A stretch of 64,000 bases of DNA, taken from contig OZ242318.1 in assembly GCA_965208105.1 (NCBI GenBank), positions 1,536,001 through 1,600,000 on the forward strand, given 5' to 3'. The notes under the pieces were generated by a model, which was not told the origin of the DNA, ran no database searches, and saw only the letters and a list, made by a program, of their open reading frames with translations. Positions 45,265-64,000 of this stretch are shown here, in pieces. The position numbers and the translations under genes are program-made. The DNA is from Candidatus Latescibacterota bacterium (GTDB taxonomy: Bacteria; Latescibacterota; UBA2968; UBA8231). Each line of letters opens with the position of its first letter. The first letter of the stretch is position 1.

Positions 45265-45930
45265 ATGACCGGCGCCATTCTCGATGCGGTCGAAGTGAGG
45301 GTGTTGGGATCACTGGCGGAAAAACAGCTCACCACCCCCGAGTACTACCCCCTCACCCTCAACGCCCTGCGCACCGCCTGCAACCAGAAATCCAACCGCG
45401 ACCCGGTGCTCGACTTCGACGACCGCACCGTGGTCCGGGCCCTCGAGTCGCTGCGCGAAAAACAGCTCGCGCGCCAGGTCAGCGGCGGCGACCAGAGGGT
45501 CCCGCGCTACTACCACCTGCTCCGGGAGCGCCTGGACCTCGAGGTCCCGGCGCTCGCCGCCCTCTGCGTCCTGATGCTGCGCGGACCCCAGACCAGCGGC
45601 GAGATACGCGGGCGCAGCAGCCGCCTGCACCACTTCGCCGACCCGGCGGCCGTGGAAGCGGTCCTGACCGGGCTGATGGATCGCGACCAACCCCTGGTGG
45701 TGCTCCTGCCGCGCCAGCCCGGCCGCAAGGAAAGGCGCTTCGCCCAACTGCTGTCAGGGGCCCCGGAGGTTCCTCAAGTAGAAGAAGAGAGCTCCGTGGA
45801 GCCGGCCGCTCTCCTGGTGCGGGAAGAAGACCGGCGCCTGGAGCAGGTGGAGAAGGAGGTGGAGAAACTTAGAGCGGAGCTGGAGGCGCTGCGCCGGGAA
45901 TTCGGCGATTTCAGGGGACAATTCGACTAG
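45265..45930 (+). CDS. yceH: YceH / DUF480 family protein
   Basis: RVLGSL.EK..TTPEYYPLTLNAL..ACNQKSNRDPV, LMLRGPQT.GE, PGRKE.R. Confidence 0.88.
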   Translation: MTGAILDAVEVRVLGSLAEKQLTTPEYYPLTLNALRTACNQKSNRDPVLDFDDRTVVRALESLREKQLARQVSGGDQRVPRYYHLLRERLDLEVPALAALCVLMLRGPQTSGEIRGRSSRLHHFADPAAVEAVLTGLMDRDQPLVVLLPRQPGRKERRFAQLLSGAPEVPQVEEESSVEPAALLVREEDRRLEQVEKEVEKLRAELEALRREFGDFRGQFD

Positions 45931-46094
45931 TGTCCCGTCGCAGAGATAGGTTGACGAAATTGGGCCGCCGAGGCGCCCGGCTCACCAGGCGCCTGAGCGA
46001 GTCGTACCAGTGGTGTACGGCGAGTGAAGGCAACGCCGTGAGCCGGGATGGATCGGCGGAATAATGGCGACATATTTCTGCGACGGGACACTAG
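45927..46094. mobile_element. MITE copy 1 (168 bp, CTAG-bounded, 18-bp perfect TIR)
   Basis: ctagtgtcccgtcgcaga ... tctgcgacgggacactag; near-identical inverted copies at 57122-57289 and 58353-58520. Confidence 0.85.
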
Positions 46095-46219
46095 GACCTG
46101 CGCGGGCAACCCCTCGTGACGGAATGCAGCGGCGGCGAATTCAGGAGGAATGGCGCTGGCAGGCGCGGGGATGCAGCGCGGGACCAGTTCCTCCGGGCGG
46201 AAGCCCCGGAATGGCCCGG

Positions 46220-54320: not shown

Positions 54321-55136
54321 CTACAGGTCCAACAGGGAGGGCGGGTCCGCCTCGGGATAGTTGTCGAGATAGCTCTGGATGTACTGCCGCGTAATGGCGG
54401 GCATCTGCCCAAGATGCCCCGGCCGGGTCAATGAATCGCGCTGTCCGTACTCGTGGGTCATCACCGTCGCCTCCGCGTGCCAGAAGGTGCAGTGCATGGT
54501 CCAGCGCTTGCGCCCCTCCGGGTTCCAACCCCGGTGCCACAGGTTGGCGTTGTAGTAGACGATGTCGCCCGGTTCCAGTTCGACGACGAGGGCGTTGGGC
54601 ATCTTCCCCGATTCGCTGCGGGACGCTTCGATCTCCGCCGCGGTCGAAGCCCGCCGGTGACTCCCGGGGACGATGTGAAGAAAGCGGTCCCCGGGAACGA
54701 GCGGTGCGTTGAACTGCGCGAAGCTGCCCTCGTGCCGGAGCAGGTAGGCGGTTTCGTCGGGATCTCCCGGTCTGCCGAGGTCGCGGTGCCATTTCTGGAT
54801 GTACGGGTCCCCGCCGCCCGAGGCGAGCATGCCGAACAGGCTGTGGCGCACGCCCCGGCCGCGGATCAGGGCCGCGAGATGGGGGGCGAGGTCCTCGTCG
54901 ATCCAGTCGGCGAAGGCGGGGTGGTACTTGTCGGGGTTGAGCAGGTGGCTGGTGCGGGACGGCAGACGGCGCGCGCGGTCGATCCATCCCAGCTCGCACT
55001 CTCCCGCAAGCCCCTTGTCGATCATGCCTTCGACCGCTTCGAGAAGCCCCTCCATGCGGGTTTTGGCAAAGGCCTGGCGCAGAACGAGAAACCCCTGTTT
55101 GGCGTAGGTCTCCTTGTCTTTTCCCGAGATCACCAT
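54321..55136 (-). CDS. phytanoyl-CoA dioxygenase (PhyH) family protein
   Basis: WHRD, VPGSH, LEPGDIVYYNANLWHRG. Confidence 0.88.
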   Translation of the reverse strand: MVISGKDKETYAKQGFLVLRQAFAKTRMEGLLEAVEGMIDKGLAGECELGWIDRARRLPSRTSHLLNPDKYHPAFADWIDEDLAPHLAALIRGRGVRHSLFGMLASGGGDPYIQKWHRDLGRPGDPDETAYLLRHEGSFAQFNAPLVPGDRFLHIVPGSHRRASTAAEIEASRSESGKMPNALVVELEPGDIVYYNANLWHRGWNPEGRKRWTMHCTFWHAEATVMTHEYGQRDSLTRPGHLGQMPAITRQYIQSYLDNYPEADPPSLLDL

Positions 55137-55212
55137 CGGAGAAATTGCATCGGGAAACACGGTTATGCCTGGGCCCGATGAGCGCGCGGTCATTCAATCG
55201 AACAGCGGATCA

Positions 55213-55902
55213 TCACCCGGCAGATTCTTCCTCGACAAGGGCGGCGAATCGCTTTTCCACGCGGCCTGTCACCAGCATGACGCCGATGGCGGCGAGCCAC
55301 AACACGAAGGCGGGGCCGGTGATGTAGTGCGCCTCCCTCGCGGCATCGATCCAGATGAGCTGCATGGCTGCGCCGAGGATCGCCGAAACCGGCGCGACCG
55401 GCCGCATGAAGCCACCCGCCCGCCATTGCCGGAGCCCAGCTGCAATAAGCGCCAGGCCAGCCAGGCTGAATCCGACCCTGCCGGTGATCCAGAAGAGGGT
55501 CAGAAGCAGGGTCGTGGTCGGCGCCACCGGGGAAAGGCCATCCACGGTGGAAGGTTCCGGTGCGGCAATCGAGAGAGCTACCCCAATTGCGCCGGACAGG
55601 GCGGTGGCCACTCCGGAGACCCCCAGCAGCACGGGAACCGGCCGCGATCCCAGGCGCCGGCGCATGATCCAGGTGCGCAACAGAAAACATGCTCCCGCGA
55701 ACAGGGTGAGGCCGGAAACGAACCGCGCGGCACCGCCGATCCCGAAGAGCGTCCGGTTGGCCCCGATGGCGGCCAGCGACTGGGCCAGCGCAGTCAGGTC
55801 CGTGGCGCCAACCCGGCCGATGACGGCCACCACGGTGAGGGTTGCGGTAACCAGGAGCAGCCAACCCGCGGTTCGGGCGGCCGGATCGCGTGATGGAATC
55901 AT
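55213..55902 (-). CDS. hypothetical membrane protein (about 6 TM, DUF4386-like)
   Basis: Six hydrophobic segments; SD gaaggg upstream. Confidence 0.7.
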   Translation of the reverse strand: MIPSRDPAARTAGWLLLVTATLTVVAVIGRVGATDLTALAQSLAAIGANRTLFGIGGAARFVSGLTLFAGACFLLRTWIMRRRLGSRPVPVLLGVSGVATALSGAIGVALSIAAPEPSTVDGLSPVAPTTTLLLTLFWITGRVGFSLAGLALIAAGLRQWRAGGFMRPVAPVSAILGAAMQLIWIDAAREAHYITGPAFVLWLAAIGVMLVTGRVEKRFAALVEEESAG

Positions 55903-56120
55903 GATACCCTTCCGTTCATGCGCCTGACGTGAATTCAGCGGTGAACCGCCTCTTCGAGCGCCGATGCCGCTGCGCAATGCCTGCAAAAATAAGGCTCTAT
56001 CTCTACCCCTCTGTCAAGGACTGAACCCACCCAGGGGAGATCAGGTTGAGGCGGTCCCCGCCCAGTTGCACCAGGCGCTGGAAGGGGTAGAAATTGCTGT
56101 GGGTGAACTTGACGCCCCAG

Positions 56121-57053
56121 CTAGAAGCGCTCGCGGGTTGCCCACGCCTTGATGAGGTGATGGGCGATGGCGATGGGCCCCGGCAGGGTCAGCCGTTGGC
56201 TCCTGCCCTCCAGGGCCTGCAGCACCTCCCTGCGCTCGAACCAGTGGACGTCGGACATCTCCTCTTCATCCATGCGGATCGTCGTCGTCTCCGCCTCGGC
56301 GAGACAGCCTATCATCAGGGAGCTGGGAAAGGGCCACGGCTGGGAGGAGTGGTATCTGACGTTCTTCACGCGCACACCGGCTTCCTCCATCACCTCGCGC
56401 GCAACCGCCTCCTCGATGGATTCGCCCTGGTCCACGAAGCCCGCCAGGGCGGAGTACATGCCCATGCGCGACAGGCGGCCGCGCGACTGGCCCAGCAGGC
56501 AGCGGTCCGCGGCCGAGTCGCCTACCACGGTGATGACCACGGGGTCGGTGCGCGGAAAGTGCTGGGCCTGGCAGGCGGGGCATTCGCGCACCTGGCCGCC
56601 GCGCCTGCTCTCGGTGGGATTGCCGCACACGGCGCAGAAGCCGTGCCGGTTGTGCCAGTCCAGGTGGGCCCGGGCGTGGGCCAGGATACCGGCTTCCCGG
56701 CCTTCCAGCAGGCTCCCGGCGGCGCGGCAGTCCTCGAAGCGCCAGGGCGGGTCCTGCCCCTGGGCCCAGGACGTCACCTCCGGGCAAGCGGTCAGGTCCA
56801 TCGCGAAATGCGCCGCTCCATCCGACAAACCCAATAGCAGGGGCATGGCATCGGGCTCCAGCGAGCGCAGCCGGTCCGCGGTGAGCCAACCCAGCCGCGG
56901 CTGCGGGTCACCGGTCAACAGGACCTCGAGATTGCGAAAGGGAATGAACCTGCTGGAGGAGGCGCGCGCCGCGGATTCGATCCAGGCTTCATCCCGCCGT
57001 TCCTGCTCACCGCGGTCGAGGGGATTGCCAGCGAAGGTATGTAGGTGTCTCAC
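56121..57053 (-). CDS. nudC: NAD(+)/NADH diphosphatase NudC
   Basis: FCAVCG Zn finger, FPRTDP, AGFVDQGESIEEAVAREVMEEAG Nudix box, SQPWPFPSSLM. Confidence 0.95.
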   Translation of the reverse strand: MRHLHTFAGNPLDRGEQERRDEAWIESAARASSSRFIPFRNLEVLLTGDPQPRLGWLTADRLRSLEPDAMPLLLGLSDGAAHFAMDLTACPEVTSWAQGQDPPWRFEDCRAAGSLLEGREAGILAHARAHLDWHNRHGFCAVCGNPTESRRGGQVRECPACQAQHFPRTDPVVITVVGDSAADRCLLGQSRGRLSRMGMYSALAGFVDQGESIEEAVAREVMEEAGVRVKNVRYHSSQPWPFPSSLMIGCLAEAETTTIRMDEEEMSDVHWFERREVLQALEGRSQRLTLPGPIAIAHHLIKAWATRERF

Positions 57054-57115
57054 CAGGTGGAATCCATCCTTGTTTTCCTTGAAGAGCGATCATCAAAGAC
57101 CAGTCCGGTCCAGCT

Positions 57116-57344
57116 CCGGACCAAGTGTCCCGTCGCAGAAATATGTCGCCATTATTCCGCCGATCCATCCCGGCTCACGGCGTTGCCTTCACTCGCCGTA
57201 CACCACTGGTACGACTCGCTCAGGCGCCTGGTGAGCCGGGCGCCTCGGCGGCCCAATTTCGTCACCCTATCTCTGCGACGGGACACTAACAGGCAACTTA
57301 CAAAATTCCCACCTTGAGGCAATGGAATCGACAATTGCCTGCCG
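57116..57344. repeat. 229-bp direct repeat R, copy 1 (MITE plus about 55-bp hairpin flank)
   Basis: Matches 58347-58575 with two mismatches seen by eye (gaggcaat vs gaagccat). Confidence 0.9.
57122..57289. mobile_element. MITE copy 2 (inverted relative to copy 1)
   Basis: agtgtcccgtcgcaga ... tctgcgacgggacact TIRs; internal sequence is the reverse complement of 45927-46094. Confidence 0.85.
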
Positions 57345-57570
57345 GGTGGCGGCCTTCGGGTGGCATCTGCTTCCTGCTCTTTCCATCCCCGGCTTCCCGT
57401 GCTTGTTTCAGAGGTCCAGAGGCATAGCGCAGATGGACTTCATCAAGGTACTTCGCTTGTGGTCGAGGGGCGGCCCAAGCAACGATAAGAACAGGAAAAT
57501 TGGAAGGGTAGGGCATAGTTGGATCGGGGAACACCTGAGTAAACAAGCCGTAGAAGAGCAAAATCTTCTA

Positions 57571-57599
57571 TTGACACAACTACGGGATTCCCGTATGTT
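57571..57599 (+). promoter_or_regulatory. TA operon promoter with palindromic operator in the spacer (leaderless)
   Basis: TTGACA-17 bp-TATGTT; palindrome tacggga-t-tcccgta overlapping spacer and -10; ATG 6 bp after the -10 with no SD. Confidence 0.75.
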
Positions 57600-57605
57600 C
57601 ACCTG

Positions 57606-57875
57606 ATGGAATTCGAATGGGATGAGAACAAAGCGGCGATGAATCTGGCCAAACATGGAATTCCGTTTGAATATGCCGCGCGAGTTTTTCTCGATCCCTA
57701 CCGTTTAGAAGAAGAGGACCTGATAGAGTACGAGGAGGAAGTGCGCCATCGCGTCATTGGAATGGTCGATGATCGCGTATTGCTTGTAGTCTATGCAGAA
57801 GGTTTTTCACAAACTCGAATCATCTCTGCCCGGAGGGCAACGCGTCATGAGCGAAGAAAATACCACGAAATTTAG
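57606..57875 (+). CDS. brnT: BrnT-family type II toxin (RNase)
   Basis: MEFEWDENKA..NL.KHGI.F, E.R..VIG, RIISARRA...ER..Y. Confidence 0.9.
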   Translation: MEFEWDENKAAMNLAKHGIPFEYAARVFLDPYRLEEEDLIEYEEEVRHRVIGMVDDRVLLVVYAEGFSQTRIISARRATRHERRKYHEI

Positions 57876-58215
57876 GCTGGACGAAAAGAACCTGCCGCGT
57901 TTGAGCAAGTCCCAAGCGCAACGTCTCGATTCCATGAGTGACGAGGAGATCGAGAAGGCCGCGTTGTCCGATCCCGACAATCCCCCTTTGACTGATGAGG
58001 GACTCGGAGCATTCGAGCGCGTTCCTGACGCCAAGGCGATCCGCAAAGCTCTGCATTTAACTCAGCGCGAATTCGCCATCACATTTCAGCTCTCTTTGGC
58101 GACGGTACGGGACTGGGAACAGGGGCGCTACCAGCCGGATCAGGCGGCCCGTACGCTTCTGCGCGTGATCGCCCGCGACGCCAAAGCGGTCAAGCGCGCC
58201 CTGGAGAGGTCTTAA
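57847..58215 (+). CDS. Cro/XRE HTH antitoxin (HigA/MqsA-like C-terminus)
   Basis: Overlaps brnT; AALSDPDNPPLTDE followed by IRKALHLTQREFA..FQLS..TVRDWEQGR.QP. Confidence 0.85.
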   Translation: MSEENTTKFRLDEKNLPRLSKSQAQRLDSMSDEEIEKAALSDPDNPPLTDEGLGAFERVPDAKAIRKALHLTQREFAITFQLSLATVRDWEQGRYQPDQAARTLLRVIARDAKAVKRALERS

Positions 58216-58346
58216 GCCGGTCACGATAACCCACCGACCAGACTCTGGACCTACGCTTCGAGATCGCGGGTCAGCTGTTCCACCGTTTCTCTCTTCAGAT
58301 TCCTGTAGGTAACACAGTCTTCCCGGAGATCTTTCGGTTCACCGAC
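58192..58346. repeat. 155-bp direct repeat T, copy 1 (antitoxin 3' end plus acyltransferase 3' remnant)
   Basis: About 144/155 identical to 61774-61928 by manual alignment. Confidence 0.9.
58221..58346 (-). pseudogene. 3' fragment of the acyltransferase gene
   Basis: VGEPKDLRED..YRNLKRETVEQLTRDLEA*VQSLVGGLS; TCG>TAG nonsense change; interrupted by the MITE. Confidence 0.8.
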
Positions 58347-58575
58347 CCGGACCAAGTGTCCCGTCGCAGAAATATGTCGCCATTATTCCGCCGATCCATC
58401 CCGGCTCACGGCGTTGCCTTCACTCGCCGTACACCACTGGTACGACTCGCTCAGGCGCCTGGTGAGCCGGGCGCCTCGGCGGCCCAATTTCGTCACCCTA
58501 TCTCTGCGACGGGACACTAACAGGCAACTTACAAAATTCCCACCTTGAAGCCATGGAATCGACAATTGCCTGCCG
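58347..58575. repeat. 229-bp direct repeat R, copy 2 (contains MITE copy 3 at 58353-58520)
   Basis: Near-identical to 57116-57344. Confidence 0.9.
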
Positions 58576-58637
58576 CATGAAGACGGCGCGCAATCGTCCC
58601 ACCGGTAAGCGTCTCCAACTGAGATGTATTGAGAGTG

Positions 58638-58863
58638 CTACGCTTGAAGAAATTCTTCTGCGGTCACCCCGGCTAGCTTCAGAATCGCTACCAGGGTTCC
58701 TTCCGGCAAATCCCCGGGGTGATTTGGGATGGTCGTTCGATGGGAGGGCAGCAGGGTTCCACCAGATCTCGTGGCTGCCTCGCGCTTGCCGGTCAAACGC
58801 GAATCCCAACCGCCGTTATTTGTTCGTCACCTGTCGATAGGCAAAACCTGCCAGTCGCCCCAT
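58638..58863 (-). pseudogene. hicA: HicA-family toxin pseudogene
   Basis: MGRLAGFAYRQVTNK*RRLGF.FDRQARGSHEIWWNP / frameshift / RTTIPNHPGDLPEGTLVAILKLAGVT.EEFL; TAA at 58816-58818; TGATG coupling to hicB. Confidence 0.85.
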
Positions 58864-59108
58864 CAGCCCCCTACAGGAACGTCCAGTTCGACCAACTCCC
58901 GGCTCATGGTATGTAATCCGTCTGGCAGAGCGTCCCCTCTTTCCCGGTAGGATTCAATCAGCTTTCTTGCCACATCTTGAGCGATTTCAACTGTTTCAGC
59001 TACCGTTCTCCCTTGTGCTACCAGACCGGGAAAGTCCTCTGCAGTTGCCAGGTGCTGTCCGTTTTCTCCCCGCCTGATATAAAGATGCAGTCTATATTCT
59101 TCTGACAT
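58863..59108 (-). CDS. hicB: HicB-family antitoxin (short, RNase H-fold domain only)
   Basis: A...DFPGLVAQGRTVAE....A.D....LIE......G..LP; SD aagg. Confidence 0.85.
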   Translation of the reverse strand: MSEEYRLHLYIRRGENGQHLATAEDFPGLVAQGRTVAETVEIAQDVARKLIESYRERGDALPDGLHTMSRELVELDVPVGG

Positions 59109-59180
59109 CCTTGGCTCCTTGGATTACTTCCGCCTGAAGACGACGCCGACCTCCACCCACCAAACCGGGTAAACTCCAGG

Positions 59181-60233
59181 TCAAGGTCCCCTCATCTTCT
59201 TCTTCACCTCTCCCCAGCTAGCTCGCTGAACCGGCGTCGCTACATCTGCTCCATAGGATTTGATTTCCGCGTCCAGGAATTTCAGGATTCTTTCCTGCCC
59301 TGGCCGTTTATACCAAACGGCTATCTTGTCGCCCCTGGGACTCCATTTTGGAATCGAATAATAAGGCTCGATGCTTTTCCGATAAATATCTACGGGCCCA
59401 GTCACGGCAGCATCGACTGCGCGGGTGTCCAGGATAAACAAAATCCCAAAACAGGTAAATACCATGAGTTTGCCATTGGGAGCCCAGGACGGATTACCGC
59501 AGGGATAATAATCGCTTAATTTGGTGAGGTTTCCTGAGTCCACGCCGATCATATAGATGCCCGCTTCCGGCTGAGACACCCATATACCTTCATCCAATGT
59601 TGCAGTGGAAAAGACCATGCGGCCATAATAATAATCGCCTATGGCTCTAAGAGATCGAGCGCCTCCCTCCGGATTCAGCACATGATAATATGTCTGGTAG
59701 GTATTCATCAGGCCACGGAAATAGCTGTATACAATCCCTTCCCTCACCCACATATCAATGCCAGCTTCTTCGTTCCATACCCTAGATATTTCCTGTAAAT
59801 CCGATCCATCGCGGTTCATGGTGTAGATGATCGTTTCTACCCAGGCATCGGAATCAGGAGGATCGTATTGCCTGTAAGTAAAGGCCAGGCGTTCGCCGTC
59901 TGGAGACCAATGAGCACAAGGACCATATCTTCCTTCATCTCTATTCTTTCCATGAGTAAAAATCGAACGCCCACCCGATCCATCGGCGTCGAGAATGAAG
60001 ATCTCATTGGTCTCTTGGAAGTTTTCTTTCAGGGAGATCGCATCTCCCTGTGGCGACCATTTCGCGCATCCTGAATAATCCAATACTCGATCTGGCCGAT
60101 CTTCATCGACATAGCGAATCGTTATGAGTCCATCTTCATAGTCATGGATTAGTACCGCATCTCCTGCCGGAGACCAGGAAACAGCCAAAGCCTGGGAGGA
60201 AATTGCAATAATAAGAACAAGAATGAATAGCAT
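59181..60233 (-). CDS. secreted TolB-like (PD40/WD40) beta-propeller protein with C-terminal TPVQRASWGEVK tail; low GC
   Basis: Signal peptide MLFILVLIIAISSQALA; repeats WSPAGD, WSPQGD, WSPDGE, WAPNGK, WSPRGD; AT-rich relative to host. Confidence 0.8.
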   Translation of the reverse strand: MLFILVLIIAISSQALAVSWSPAGDAVLIHDYEDGLITIRYVDEDRPDRVLDYSGCAKWSPQGDAISLKENFQETNEIFILDADGSGGRSIFTHGKNRDEGRYGPCAHWSPDGERLAFTYRQYDPPDSDAWVETIIYTMNRDGSDLQEISRVWNEEAGIDMWVREGIVYSYFRGLMNTYQTYYHVLNPEGGARSLRAIGDYYYGRMVFSTATLDEGIWVSQPEAGIYMIGVDSGNLTKLSDYYPCGNPSWAPNGKLMVFTCFGILFILDTRAVDAAVTGPVDIYRKSIEPYYSIPKWSPRGDKIAVWYKRPGQERILKFLDAEIKSYGADVATPVQRASWGEVKKKMRGP

Positions 60234-60340
60234 GATTTCCCTATATTTCTGATTATCCAGATCAGAATTCACCTTCTTTTTAATTTCCCCCCAGCTCTCG
60301 CCAGGGCATCCCTTACGGCGAACAGAAACGAATACTATCA

Positions 60341-60387
60341 TTGACACGACTACGGGAATCCCGGGTGTCCGCCTTATGAAATTCGAA
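60341..60387 (+). promoter_or_regulatory. degenerate copy of the TA promoter/operator/start block
   Basis: 39/47 identical to 57571-57617; TTGACA kept, -10 changed to GGTGTC, palindrome broken; ATG at the same 35-bp offset. Confidence 0.75.
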
Positions 60388-61797
60388 AGAAAAGTTTCCA
60401 TGGCACCGCTTTCCACCCGCGTCACCGCCACGCTGTCCAATGCACCGGAGGGCAGCAGCATTTTCGCCAGCTTCCAGCAAACCCCTGTCTACCACAAACC
60501 TGTCACCGTCGAAGCCGCCCTCGACGAAAAGGGCTGTCTGGCGGTGGACCTTCCGCTCACCGAAGCGCACATGGTCTCGGTCAGTTTCGAGGAGGAGGTC
60601 AAGCTCTTCCTGGAACCGGGCGATCAGTTGCACATCGACGCGGATGTGCTCGACCTGCCCCGGTCTCTTCGCTTCTCCGGCAGGAGCGCCGGCAACAACC
60701 AGTTCCTCGCCGCCCTGCGGTCCCGCTTTCCCGATTACCTGCGCATCGGCTACAAGGACCTCGAGGCCGACGCCTTTCGCCTGATGATCGACCGGCGACG
60801 CTCGGAATTGGAGAGCTTCCTGGAAGAGGGTTGCAGCCAGACCCAACTCACTCCGGGGTTTATCGCCTTCTACCGGGCCGAGATCACCTATGAGTGGGCC
60901 ACAGAGGTGGTTTCCTATCCGCGCAACTACGAGAGAGAAAACGGCAGGAAGAACAAAGCCCTCTCCGCGGGCTATTTCGACGTCCTCGATCAAGTCGAAC
61001 TGGTCGACGAAGCGGCCATCGGCACCACCCATTACCGCCGATTTCTGGAGGGCAATTTTCTGCGCCATTTCTTTCGCCTATGGGAAGAAAGGGGAAAGCA
61101 GCGCGACATCGAGCAAATGCCTGCCGAGGAACCCCAGGTCTTTGCCGAGACCTACTCCGACTACAATCAGGCCAAGCGGAAACTGCACGGCAAAGTCCTG
61201 TTCTTCTTTCTCGCCGGTGAAATCGTCCGGGACTTTCTCTACGGGCGATATGACCAGGGGGAACAACGCCTTGCCGGATTCCGCCAGGACAACCCATATC
61301 CAGAATACACCGAAGCCGTAGAGGAAGTCGCACGGGAAACATCCAGGCTCAAACCCGGTGAGCCCGCCCCCGACTTCACCCTCGACGACCTCCAGGGCCG
61401 AAGCGTCTCCCTGAGCGATTTCAAAGGGCAGGTGGTTTTCCTGGACTTTTGGGCAAGTTGGTGTGGTCCCTGCATCGAGGCATTACCCCATCTGGAAGAG
61501 ATCAAACGGCGGACCCGGGACCTGAAGGTGGTCTTTCTGAACATCTCTCTTGACCGCGCGAACGAGTGGCACCAGGAGGTGGAAGAGCACCGCGTGACTG
61601 GAGTCCACGTTCACGCCCCGGACGGCTGGAAAGCCGAAGCGGCTCAGTTGTACCAGGTCCAGGGAATACCCTCCTATTTCCTGGTAGGTCCGGACGGCCG
61701 GATGGCTGCCCGCCCTGAGAATGTCTTCGATGTTGCCGCGGTGGTCGCCCGCATTGAGGAATTGGCATCCAGGAAGCGCGCCCTGGAGAGGTCTTAA
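60376..61797 (+). CDS. TlpA/AhpC-TSA family redoxin with long N-terminal domain
   Basis: PGEPAPDFTL.DLQG..VSLSDFKG.VVFLDFWASWCGPC; YQVQGIPSYFLVGPDG. Confidence 0.88.
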   Translation: MKFERKVSMAPLSTRVTATLSNAPEGSSIFASFQQTPVYHKPVTVEAALDEKGCLAVDLPLTEAHMVSVSFEEEVKLFLEPGDQLHIDADVLDLPRSLRFSGRSAGNNQFLAALRSRFPDYLRIGYKDLEADAFRLMIDRRRSELESFLEEGCSQTQLTPGFIAFYRAEITYEWATEVVSYPRNYERENGRKNKALSAGYFDVLDQVELVDEAAIGTTHYRRFLEGNFLRHFFRLWEERGKQRDIEQMPAEEPQVFAETYSDYNQAKRKLHGKVLFFFLAGEIVRDFLYGRYDQGEQRLAGFRQDNPYPEYTEAVEEVARETSRLKPGEPAPDFTLDDLQGRSVSLSDFKGQVVFLDFWASWCGPCIEALPHLEEIKRRTRDLKVVFLNISLDRANEWHQEVEEHRVTGVHVHAPDGWKAEAAQLYQVQGIPSYFLVGPDGRMAARPENVFDVAAVVARIEELASRKRALERS

Positions 61798-61928
61798 GCC
61801 GGTCAGGATAACCCACCGACCAGGCTCTGGACCGACGCTTCGAGATCGCGGGTCAGCTGTTCCACCGTTTCTCTCTTCAGATTTCTGTAGGCTTGGTAGT
61901 CTTCCCGGAGATCTTTCGGTTCGCCGAC
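61774..61928. repeat. 155-bp direct repeat T, copy 2
   Basis: Spans the TlpA stop and the intact acyltransferase 3' end; matches 58192-58346. Confidence 0.9.
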
Positions 61929-63020
61929 GCGTACCGACGCCACCCGCGGTCCGCGCATTTCGGACTCGCCGAAGACTTCCCTTTCAAGACGGAGAATCAC
62001 GTCGAGGAAGCGCTCCGGAGACGGCTCTTCGGCAACGTACCCGTCGGATATGGAAATGAAATTGATCAACCGCTCCAGATCGGGATAGAATTGCTGGAAT
62101 TTCCGGAGCTGCTCTTCATGAATCTTGCGCTCGTACTCCGTCATCTGCTCGACGTCCCTGTAGATCTCCGCATCGACCAGAATCTTCAACGCGCGCGTCC
62201 TCGCGAGAATGTCGGATTCAGCGCGGATGCCCATGATCCCCTCGGCCCGGGACAGGATCGCGTCCTTCAACCTTTCGATGTGCAGGTCAAAGGAAACCGT
62301 TTCGTCCGCCTGGTACTGATACTCCGCTGCGAGTGTCCTGAATAGCGCCACACCGACGCGGCGTAAGCGGTCGTAGCGTTCCACCGGCGTCCGTTCGGCC
62401 GGCGGGAGGATGTTTCGTTCCAACCTGGTGAGGGCCGCGTCGATGGAATTCCACATGTCGCGCGGATAGCGGTATTTTATTCCGACCGGCACGGCAAACA
62501 GCGGTCTGCCGGCCTCCGCTTTTTCCATATCGTCCAGTGCCCAGAAGCACATCTGGACAATGCCTCTCTCGAAGCGCATGACGGTGTCGTTCTGGCGCGA
62601 AATTTCCCCTTCGCCAAAGATGACGATCGGCCAGTCCCCCCTGGACAAAAGCTCCCGCGTCGTGCGGAAGGCATCTCTGTCTGCAGTGCCGCGCACGACC
62701 GAGTAAACACCGGCCCGCTGCATCAGCCAGCAGCGGAAAGCCCCGAACCTGCCCCGGTCGAATGTCTCCCGAGCGGCCATATAGTAGAAGGGTTGAGACA
62801 GCCGCTTCGACAACAGAAACATGACCACGGGATCTTCGTGCGCCGGATGATTGGGAGCCAGGACCGCGGAATGCCCGTGAATGGCCTCCAACCGGGCAAT
62901 GGACTCCGCATCGACATCCAGGGTCAACCCTTTCAGGTAGAAGCGATTCACCAGCGGCATCAGTGCCTGAACAACTCGAATCGTGGTCACACTCGGTTCA
63001 GGTGGTTTGAAATCCTGCAT
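61803..63020 (-). CDS. phospholipid/glycerol acyltransferase (PlsC-like, long form)
   Basis: APNHPAHED (HxxxxD), YYMAARE, GVYSVVRG, IFGEG, PVGIKY. Confidence 0.88.
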   Translation of the reverse strand: MQDFKPPEPSVTTIRVVQALMPLVNRFYLKGLTLDVDAESIARLEAIHGHSAVLAPNHPAHEDPVVMFLLSKRLSQPFYYMAARETFDRGRFGAFRCWLMQRAGVYSVVRGTADRDAFRTTRELLSRGDWPIVIFGEGEISRQNDTVMRFERGIVQMCFWALDDMEKAEAGRPLFAVPVGIKYRYPRDMWNSIDAALTRLERNILPPAERTPVERYDRLRRVGVALFRTLAAEYQYQADETVSFDLHIERLKDAILSRAEGIMGIRAESDILARTRALKILVDAEIYRDVEQMTEYERKIHEEQLRKFQQFYPDLERLINFISISDGYVAEEPSPERFLDVILRLEREVFGESEMRGPRVASVRVGEPKDLREDYQAYRNLKRETVEQLTRDLEASVQSLVGGLS

Positions 63021-63105
63021 CGCGTCCTGTTTTGGGTCGAACGGGGTGTTGGTCTTTGAGGTGTATCGCCCGTAACCCCGGAGCGGTCCACGAGGGCCGG
63101 CCAGC

Positions 63106-64000
63106 TCAGCGCAGGAAACAGGGGGAGGCCTCGGCCACCGCTTCGGGGTGAATGACGCGCAGGGCAAGCCCGCCTTCCCCGTCGTCCTGCCACTGGATCT
63201 GGAGGCCCTTGAGCGCGCGCTGGGCTCCGGCCTGCCGGTCGCCGAGGGGATACACGCGGAACGGACCCAACACCGTCTCGGTCTCGAGGGCGAAAAGGTG
63301 GTCGCGGATGGCGGCCGGATCGAGCTTCCCGGTGGCCGCCAGCGCCGCTTCAATGGCCTCGGCGAGGAGCTCCACCGCTCCGAACCCACCCGCCGGCCGG
63401 TGGTCCGGGCTCGATTCCTCCGAGGCTTCGTACCTGGCGACCAGGGTCTCGCTGTCTCCGATGAATCCGGATGTGCGAACCGCCGGAATCCAGGGAGCCC
63501 CTCCTGCCACGCAGCGGGCCAACTCCCCCACTCCGGCGACAAACACGGGACTTGCCGGACCGGGCACGCTCAACATCCGGGGCACGTATCCGCTCCGGGC
63601 TACGGCTTTGCGCAATTCGACCAGGTCCTGACCGTAGCCGCCGATCGCCAACAGATCCGCATCCGCCTCCCTGGCGGCCGCCGCAAGAGCTCCATATTCG
63701 GCTTCTCCCACCTCGTAGGCCTGGTCCAGCACGAGGTTGAGCCCGTGCGCCTCGGCGGTCTCGCGCACACCTTTGGCCAGGGAGCGGGGAAATGCGGTGT
63801 CCTCGTAAATCAGGGCGACGGTGTTGTCTCCGGCCTGTGCCGCCAGCTCCACCGAGCCCTGGAGATACGTGAATCCAGGATTCAGCATCTGAACGCTCCA
63901 TTGCCGCTGCTGGTCCACCCAGAGTTCGGGAGCCGAGGCCAATGGGGCGACAAAGGGCATGCCCGCCGCTTCGACCACCGGGAGTACGGACTCGGTGATC
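63106..64000 (-). CDS. branched-chain amino acid ABC transporter substrate-binding protein (5' end outside window)
   Basis: VALIYEDTAF, GLNLV...Y, ETVLGPF, QWQ; periplasmic binding protein type 1 pattern; frame open to the window edge. Confidence 0.75.
   Translation of the reverse strand, partial: ITESVLPVVEAAGMPFVAPLASAPELWVDQQRQWSVQMLNPGFTYLQGSVELAAQAGDNTVALIYEDTAFPRSLAKGVRETAEAHGLNLVLDQAYEVGEAEYGALAAAAREADADLLAIGGYGQDLVELRKAVARSGYVPRMLSVPGPASPVFVAGVGELARCVAGGAPWIPAVRTSGFIGDSETLVARYEASEESSPDHRPAGGFGAVELLAEAIEAALAATGKLDPAAIRDHLFALETETVLGPFRVYPLGDRQAGAQRALKGLQIQWQDDGEGGLALRVIHPEAVAEASPCFLR

Follow-up and report, generated by a model that had tools for sequence, protein, structure and literature searches.

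A stretch of 64,000 nucleotides (nt) from a Candidatus Latescibacterota bacterium (GenBank assembly GCA_965208105.1, contig OZ242318.1, positions 1,536,001 to 1,600,000), referred to here as the window, contains, between a nudC gene and an acyltransferase gene, a brnTA toxin–antitoxin operon, a hicA pseudogene with a hicB-like gene, and genes for a PD40 protein and a TlpA-like oxidoreductase. Three short sequence blocks, called R, P and T, each occur twice among these genes. An earlier note, made from the letters of the window, described them as a scaffold of two tandem units filled with different cargo. The locus was compared with the 76 genomes of the family, including the source genome (G000) and one other genome from the same genus (G001), and with Logan contigs from four sequencing runs (X1, X3, X16 and X20), of which X3 comes from a different study. 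The gene calls made previously all held (BrnT, an antitoxin with a helix-turn-helix domain, hicA in two frames, a weak HicB, a TolB-like PD40 gene of low GC content, a redoxin, the acyltransferase and NudC). The features of the locus, in window coordinates, are as follows.

56121–57053, minus strand: nudC, encoding NADH pyrophosphatase and forming the conserved flank on the left; matches Pfam NUDIX, NUDIX-like and Zn_ribbon_NUD; 85% amino-acid identity to G001
57100–57124, minus strand: hairpin resembling a terminator, upstream of nudC; R has its left edge (57116) at the loop, and R2 keeps the right arm only
57116–57344, plus strand: R1, consisting of a 9-bp left flank, a 163-bp miniature inverted-repeat transposable element (MITE; 57125–57287) and a 56-bp right flank
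57345–57569, no strand: spacer of 225 bp (the "226-bp fragment" of the earlier note); its right ~100 nt are native brnTA upstream region, homologous to G010
57570–57617, plus strand: P1, with a -35 box TTGACA, the palindrome ACTACGGGATTCCCGTA, a -10 box TATGTT and, after 6 nt, brnT from its ATG to codon 4 (MEFE)
57606–57875, plus strand: brnT toxin gene, intact, 89 amino acids; Pfam BrnT_toxin, E 1e-24; 88–91% amino-acid identity to the copies of genus g13
57847–58215, plus strand: antitoxin gene (HTH_3/MqsA-like, 122 amino acids), overlapping brnT; its last eight codons (KRALERS and stop) open block T
58192–58346, no strand: T1, consisting of the antitoxin tail (58192–58215), a 5-bp spacer and a truncated acyltransferase 3' end (58221–58346, minus strand, in-frame stop)
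58346/58347, no strand: the single novel junction of the array, where a site inside the acyltransferase gene meets the left flank of R; X3 record 27 spans it
58347–58575, plus strand: R2, with R1-like flanks and a MITE (58356–58518) that is absent at this site in an X3 contig
58638–58809, minus strand: hicA pseudogene, with N-terminal and C-terminal halves in different frames
58863–59108, minus strand: hicB-like antitoxin gene, 81 amino acids; Pfam HicB_lk_antitox, E 0.009 (weak)
59181–60233, minus strand: gene for a protein of PD40 repeats (TolB-like beta-propeller) whose start resembles a signal peptide; 48% GC, versus 66% for the window
60340–60387, plus strand: P2, with the -35 box and most of the palindrome kept, a -10 box that now reads GGTGTC, and ATG AAA TTC GAA (MKFE)
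60400–61797, plus strand: TlpA-like thiol:disulfide oxidoreductase; AhpC-TSA/Redoxin match; native start at ATG 60400 (MAPLSTRV); last eight codons derived from the antitoxin
61774–61928, no strand: T2, in which the antitoxin tail and 5 bp of spacer precede the 3' end of the intact acyltransferase
61803–63020, minus strand: acyltransferase (PF01553; profile match), intact, the right conserved flank

A repeat search of positions 55500–63500 recovered all three blocks at the places at which they had been reported: R (229 nt, 99% identity, spacing 1231), T (58192–58353 and 61774–61935; 162 nt, 92%, spacing 3582) and P (48 nt, 83%). In blastn searches of the 4.85-Mb source genome, the E values were 4e-112 for R and 1e-60 for T. 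P is below the useful length for BLAST, and its 26-nt core was therefore searched for with up to five mismatches; it has only two sites in the 4.85 Mb. The search for further P and T blocks that had been proposed found none, as the whole genome contains no additional copies of T (blastn) or of P (core search). The blocks follow one another in the same order and orientation twice, and R2 starts directly after the end of T1, so that the adjacency of the two units at 58346/58347 was found as claimed.

This join is the sole sequence of the array that the units themselves leave unexplained. It lies about 41 codons from the stop codon of the acyltransferase gene, and no clear microhomology was seen on inspection of the junction. 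One novel junction, the same block order on both sides, a truncated copy of a gene inside the array (T1) and the intact gene outside it (T2) form the signature of a tandem duplication. The junction was also found in independent data, in the form of contigs and not of raw reads. X3 record 27 (476 nt) matches 58128–58353 with 0 mismatches (226 nt), continues with three other letters, and then matches 58521–58767. It spans T1 to unit 2 on the hicA side, and thus rules out a concatenation by the assembler. An artefact of this type, in which two strain alleles of the nudC–acyltransferase interval had been placed end to end, would fit the estimated contamination of the source assembly (8%), the resemblance of the units to alternative alleles, with T1 and T2 7% apart, and the breaks at MITEs in the X16 contigs listed. 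Assembler joins, however, need overlap and the junction of T1 with R2 has no shared sequence; the record that crosses from T1 to unit 2 comes from a different study, and the source genome is a single 4.85-Mb contig. This explanation is, thus, highly improbable.

Most of block R is a mobile element. Positions 9–173 of R match at 94–99% identity at the best 40 of 163 candidate places in the source genome, and BLAST of R against the genome gave 99 matches of at least 85% identity, 54 of which start at R position 9 and 64 of which end at position 173. Complete elements with both terminal repeats number 81 (160–169 bp; median identity to the consensus, 96.3%), and 42 of these 81 copies are flanked by TA on both sides, as expected of a TA target-site duplication. 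The element is short and non-coding, with terminal inverted repeats of about 15 nt; its arms, GTGTCCCGTCGCAGA and TCTGCGACGGGACAC, pair, and it folds as a long hairpin (-55.9 kcal/mol, z -6.81). An Rfam scan of 55900–63600 returned only a sub-threshold match to sR58 (20.7 bits versus a gathering threshold of 55, E 0.44), and R hence belongs to no known RNA family. The core of R is a TA-type MITE of the IS630/Tc1-mariner class, to which a local flank is added. An example of such elements is RUP of Streptococcus pneumoniae. In size, inverted repeats, hairpin, TA flanks and number of dispersed copies (81–99 here), the element resembles this class. It is also present in G001, G008, G014, G016, G017, G021 and G040, that is, in several other genera of the family. 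A MITE family of about 100 copies is thereby recorded in a sponge-associated lineage. In the part of the literature reached by a search, no paper bearing on MITEs in sponge symbionts was found, and the papers found for BrnTA were general ones.

The two local copies of this MITE differ from typical members of the family in how they arose. They alone cover R positions 1–229, and the 9-bp and 56-bp flanks are common to them alone. Their MITEs are identical and have two rare bases in common, carried by 9 and 3 of the 81 copies, and both are flanked by AA on the left and TA on the right, an arrangement seen in 4 of the 81. The identity, the rare bases and the unusual AA left flank indicate that R1 and R2 are copies of one another and not separate insertions; unlike other members of the class, they were copied locally, flanks included, and not transposed. 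The MITE is, moreover, a passenger, as shown by its absence at R2 in X3, where the link between T1 and unit 2 remains.

A second explanation also starts from these elements: the identical direct MITEs at 57125–57287 and 58356–58518 could have mobilized the intervening 1,068 bp (spacer, brnTA and T1) as a composite transposon, with an IS630-family transposase acting in trans. MITE-bounded composites are known from other bacteria, identical MITEs do flank brnTA here, and the genome has 13 matches to DDE_3 (IS630-type) transposases. Composite insertion does not, however, predict that the two MITEs should share their flanks on the right (56 bp) and on the left (9 bp). The outer flanks read AA...TA, with no TA duplication; X3 keeps the link between T1 and unit 2 without the R2 MITE, and the spacer and brnTA are single-copy in the genome. 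The terminal repeats of the MITE, finally, were found on none of the transposase elements at the 4 loci inspected of the 13, and no autonomous partner with the same ends was seen among these 4. At L053, the only matches to the MITE ends are the two ends of a MITE copy beside the transposase. A composite transposon is accordingly a quite improbable source of the array.

Several side observations concern block R and its MITE. A further copy of the MITE lies in the window at 45928–46111, with a left flank that resembles the sequence to the left of R2 at 10 of 14 positions, possibly reflecting a target preference. At about 392.9 kb and 756.6 kb of contig C1 of the source genome, MITE copies abut copies of an IS630-type element, with the same right flank, gtgctctgttaagg..., and about eight MITE copies abut another repeat, reading accaccccggagggggttgacaaccgtcaatacatatca; nested repeats of this kind were seen at these two positions and in at least eight other places. 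The right flank of R (57291–57343) matches positions 1653–1705 of L054 in G035, a class-level relative (79% over 53 nt), about 60 nt upstream of an arylsulfatase gene, and G001 has an N-terminal fragment of a sulfatase directly beside nudC. The R flanks could not be aligned to the intergenic region beside nudC in G001. As a weak lead, the right flank could be what is left of a sulfatase leader, with a 7-bp inverted repeat (CAGGCAA...TTGCCTG).

Block P can be assigned to the brnTA operon. The start codons of P1 (ATG GAA TTC GAA) are those of brnT, and P1 is the best sigma-70-like site within 56900–62100 (10 of 12 consensus matches), a scan in which P2 was not detected. The weaker homology upstream of P2 extends back to about 60313. 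A 23-nt P pattern, with up to two mismatches allowed, was found in 11 of the 76 family genomes, source genome included, and gave 0 matches to a reversed control. Of the 11 P sites outside the source genome, eight are followed by brnT (MEFEWDE; seven full length and one frameshifted); the other three precede a brnT-deleted fusion to the antitoxin (G075), unrelated sequence (G010) and a paralogous toxin–antitoxin pair with a variant palindrome. Judging by sequence, P is the putative native promoter, palindromic operator and start of brnTA rather than a dedicated anchor, and P2 is a decaying relic of such an operon, not a conserved anchor.

The operon resembles BrnT/BrnA type II toxin–antitoxin systems, the prototype of which is from Brucella abortus, in its BrnT_toxin domain (PF04365, 87 bits with a cut-off of 34.5) and in its small, overlapping downstream antitoxin gene; a palindrome lies between the -35 and -10 boxes, as would be expected for autoregulation. 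It is unlike them in its antitoxin, which belongs with HTH_3 and MqsA rather than with BrnA (no match to a BrnA-family model at E values up to 5; matches to HTH_3, MqsA_antitoxin, HTH_31 and Aca2_YdiL), and in its promoter, which is 6 nt from the ATG. This distance from the -10 box to the ATG was observed in every intact copy of brnTA (window 57599–57606 and the g13 loci), and suggests that the predicted brnTA mRNA may be leaderless.

A separate observation is that brnT has been lost repeatedly and independently while its promoter and the antitoxin were kept, at L041 (G075), L038 (G069) and L031 (G010), in P0012, P0013 and P0018, and in contig ends. The losses take the form of an in-frame deletion fusing MELE or MEFE to the antitoxin leader, of a frameshift, of a deletion directly after ATGGAAA, and of complete replacement downstream of the promoter. 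A recurrent loss of the toxin gene across related genomes is thus recorded.

Block T is composed of two convergent gene ends, those of the antitoxin and of the acyltransferase. The KRALERS tail is native to the antitoxin, as close homologues end in KAVKRALEMS and distant ones have KAIKRDLE near the C-terminal end. The minus-strand translation of T1 is the C-terminus of the acyltransferase (91% identity over 43 amino acids); this part consists of about 41 codons and the stop codon of the gene, and it carries an in-frame stop and a 6-nt patch of differences. Over the first 155 nt, T1 and T2 differ at 11 positions (7%).

In unit 2, the place of brnTA between P2 and T2 is taken by the gene for the TlpA-like protein. 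In a DNA comparison with contig ends, homology to its orthologues spans 60395–61773. The orthologues start with MTPLSTRV (G010) and MPLPLTRV (G016), which places the native start here at ATG 60400, and they end in EVLS* and EVVSGEVL*, respectively, unlike the KRALERS of the window. The relic ATG of brnT, at 60376, and the gene share a reading frame. At the 5' join, codon 4 of brnT is followed by 7 nt of unmatched origin and then by TlpA sequence from position -5, without the ribosome-binding site that the gene has in relatives (GAGGAGA); the 3' join is at a common AAG, and neither join breaks the reading frame. Two other proteins of the same 90% cluster, P0002 and P0003, from diverged relatives, are chimeras of this kind, each with the P2 relic and the KRALE[RI]S tail. 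P0002 (465 amino acids) ends in GKRALERS; P0003 (515 amino acids), in which the P2 relic is translated as ...NTIIDKTTGVPNVRLVKFERKVSMAPLS, has RKRALEIS at its end. The two are roughly 90–95% alike by eye. Their occurrence shows the replacement of brnTA by the TlpA-like gene to be old and inherited. Ahead of the P2 relic, the sequence of P0003 differs. As a side observation, the first 317 residues of the TlpA-like protein (60400–61350) have no Pfam match even at E 5 and no obvious signal peptide; the G010 and G016 orthologues have the same start position.

The intervals between R and P have nothing detectable in common. Local alignment of the unit 1 spacer with the corresponding interval of unit 2 gave a score of 23, versus a shuffle maximum of 25, and no homology was detected. 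The right-hand ~100 nt of the spacer and ~25 nt upstream of P2 both align with the sequence upstream of the P relic in G010, which indicates that unit 1 keeps more of the native brnTA upstream region and that this region was cut short in unit 2 by the PD40 segment. DNA homologues of the hicB-like gene adjoin hicA in G033, G008 and G029, and a contig of X1 has one base fewer at 58742, the position of the frame break in hicA. The PD40 gene is probably foreign.

The stretch from nudC to the acyltransferase varies between strains. In addition to the X3 contig, which lacks the R2 MITE, a contig of X20 joins 58314 to 61897 and skips exactly 3582 bases (68 nt on the shorter side, 90% likeness). This join may represent a single-unit form, with brnTA beside the acyltransferase, or a secondary deletion between T1 and T2, and is a hint only. 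Some other candidates were set aside: zero depth over 57506–57756 in X1 was not used as a sign of a strain without unit 1, an uncovered part being no evidence, and contig joins from the MITE end to 61366, together with joints that turn back inside the MITE, come from other copies of the MITE or from other organisms.

In G001, nudC and the acyltransferase gene are about 0.9 Mb apart around the contig, with no synteny, and brnTA is absent beside either of them. In genus g13, the acyltransferase gene (orthologue, 84–86% amino-acid identity) lies about 110 bp upstream of P and brnTA, in divergent orientation, at seven of nine loci (L033, L035–L038, L040 and L041), unlike in the window, where brnTA and the acyltransferase gene are convergent and 5 bp apart. 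The linkage in g13 indicates that the pairing of brnTA with the acyltransferase gene is older than the source genus. A PhyH-family gene like that at 54321–55193 of the window lies 2.5–8 kb beyond the antitoxin in g13 loci, and no antitoxin relic was seen beyond the 3' end of the acyltransferase gene at seven g13 loci. Block T itself may be an old rearrangement junction, as the gene orders would suggest. A metagenome scan with the acyltransferase protein yielded three loci, at 65–85% identity, none of which is a strain-level relative or allele.

The earlier note had interpreted R, P and T as conserved anchors of an integrase-free capture hotspot, in which homologous recombination would swap cargo between strains. 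Part of this description stands: there are two tandem units, unrelated genes lie in the two intervals that the blocks delimit, and strains vary (X3 without the R2 MITE, the possible single unit of X20, the different upstream sequence of P0003). The blocks, at 48–229 bp, are by general knowledge long enough in principle for RecA-mediated exchange. What fails is the role of the blocks as anchors, given that they are a MITE, a promoter and gene ends. The core of R is a generic element with 81 copies, and P and T are parts of brnTA and the acyltransferase gene, with no other copies in the genome. P2 is degenerating at the functional -10 positions, and P precedes brnT or its remnants across the 75 other family genomes, with G010 as the one exception. 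The chimera is inherited in diverged relatives, and hence was not recently swapped, and the distance between nudC and the acyltransferase gene in G001 also argues against a shared hotspot. A capture hotspot of this kind is, overall, very unlikely. The array resembles integron cassette arrays and toxin–antitoxin cassettes, in that unrelated small genes, including toxin–antitoxin pairs, lie between short repeats. It is unlike them in having no integrase match in any of the 13 distinct open reading frames (14 queries) scanned between 54 and 64 kb (54321–63999, the remainder of the window being unscanned), which agrees with the absence of an integrase noted earlier, and in that its repeats do not appear to be attC sites and form two units only, with one duplication junction. 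The MITE, with TA flanks and copies throughout the genome, is the sole palindromic block.

With a probability of about 0.75, the R–P–T pattern is the homology that two tandem copies of a single ancestral unit still retain, produced by ordinary rearrangement and not by a new gene-capture device. From the blocks, we infer the following order of events and recombination mechanism. The ancestral unit would have comprised a spacer on the nudC side with a MITE, the brnTA upstream region, the operon of P, brnT and the antitoxin, and the convergent 3' end of the acyltransferase gene. One illegitimate join, between a site inside the acyltransferase gene and the loop of the hairpin upstream of nudC (58346|58347), would have left T1 in the middle of the array. 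The copies could have been sisters at first and diverged afterwards, or they could be alleles of two strains, about 4–7% apart, joined by unequal or homology-facilitated illegitimate recombination; the latter process has been described for naturally transformable bacteria. Unit 1, with intact brnTA under P1, would be near the ancestral state. In unit 2, the TlpA-like open reading frame, from position -5 to its last few codons, would have replaced brnTA, keeping the promoter and first four codons of brnT and the last eight codons of the antitoxin, and in a separate event the truncated hicA with hicB and the PD40 gene of low GC content would have replaced most of the upstream spacer. Duplication or gene conversion would account for the identity of the MITE in the two copies.

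Several observations weigh against this reconstruction. The blocks have diverged unequally: R1 and R2 differ at 0 of 163 positions in the MITE and at 2 of 56 in the non-MITE flank, the T copies at 11 of 155 and the P copies at 8 of 48. The flank and T are compatible (Fisher p 0.52), whereas whole R (2/229) and T are not (p 0.002), and a single clean duplication therefore requires extra events (gene conversion, late arrival of the MITE, relaxed selection on P2). The identity of the MITEs can be explained by gene conversion or by late arrival, fitting the absence of the MITE at R2 in X3. The three letters found at that site, without TA, fit neither a clean empty site nor the footprint of a classic excision. 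Two non-homologous replacements in unit 2, one of them in frame at both ends, are tidier than random indels predict. The array resembles known cases of tandem segmental duplication and duplication–degeneration in its collinear homologous blocks, its single homology-free junction, its inner truncated gene fragment and its outer intact gene, but not in the two whole-segment replacements and uneven divergence of its copies, which imply that two alleles were joined or that several events followed. By eye, the proteins of the relatives that bear the chimera look to have diverged by several percent, comparable to the 7% between T1 and T2, and this leans towards two old alleles joined in tandem rather than a duplication in situ. 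The single-unit ancestor was found in full context in no genome, the X20 contig being the one hint of it, and none of the contigs listed for X16, which of the four runs covers the greatest part of the stretch, spans 58221–58519.

A more speculative and improbable proposal retains a role for the remnants. The brnTA operon of unit 2 would be an empty shell (promoter, operator, start, last codons and stop) holding the TlpA open reading frame; shells of this sort and the R flank would serve as homology anchors for a recombinase-free exchange of cargo among sponge-symbiont strains, and the antitoxin of unit 1 would bind the palindrome of P2, tying expression of the redoxin to the state of the toxin–antitoxin system.

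The preferred reading, residual homology between two tandem copies, implies that the look of a cassette scaffold can arise from ordinary processes, namely a MITE, a tandem join and the decay of a toxin–antitoxin operon, and calls for caution in scans for capture systems. The locus also provides a clean natural example of a toxin–antitoxin operon replaced, open reading frame for open reading frame, by an unrelated gene, with the promoter and the first and last codons left behind, in a form inherited in related strains.

A further repeat lies to the left of the array. An 81-bp copy (96%) of an internal piece of a DHDPS-family gene is present at 56036–56116 (no strand), as an orphan fragment between nudC and an upstream gene for a DUF998-like membrane protein. 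The right copy of this direct repeat is at window-equivalent positions 64715–64795, inside the parent gene (64388–65320, minus strand), and G001 carries the sequence only in the gene copy. The fragment, 1 kb to the left of the array, looks like a second scar of duplication or rearrangement, bracketing the whole stretch from nudC to a binding-protein gene.

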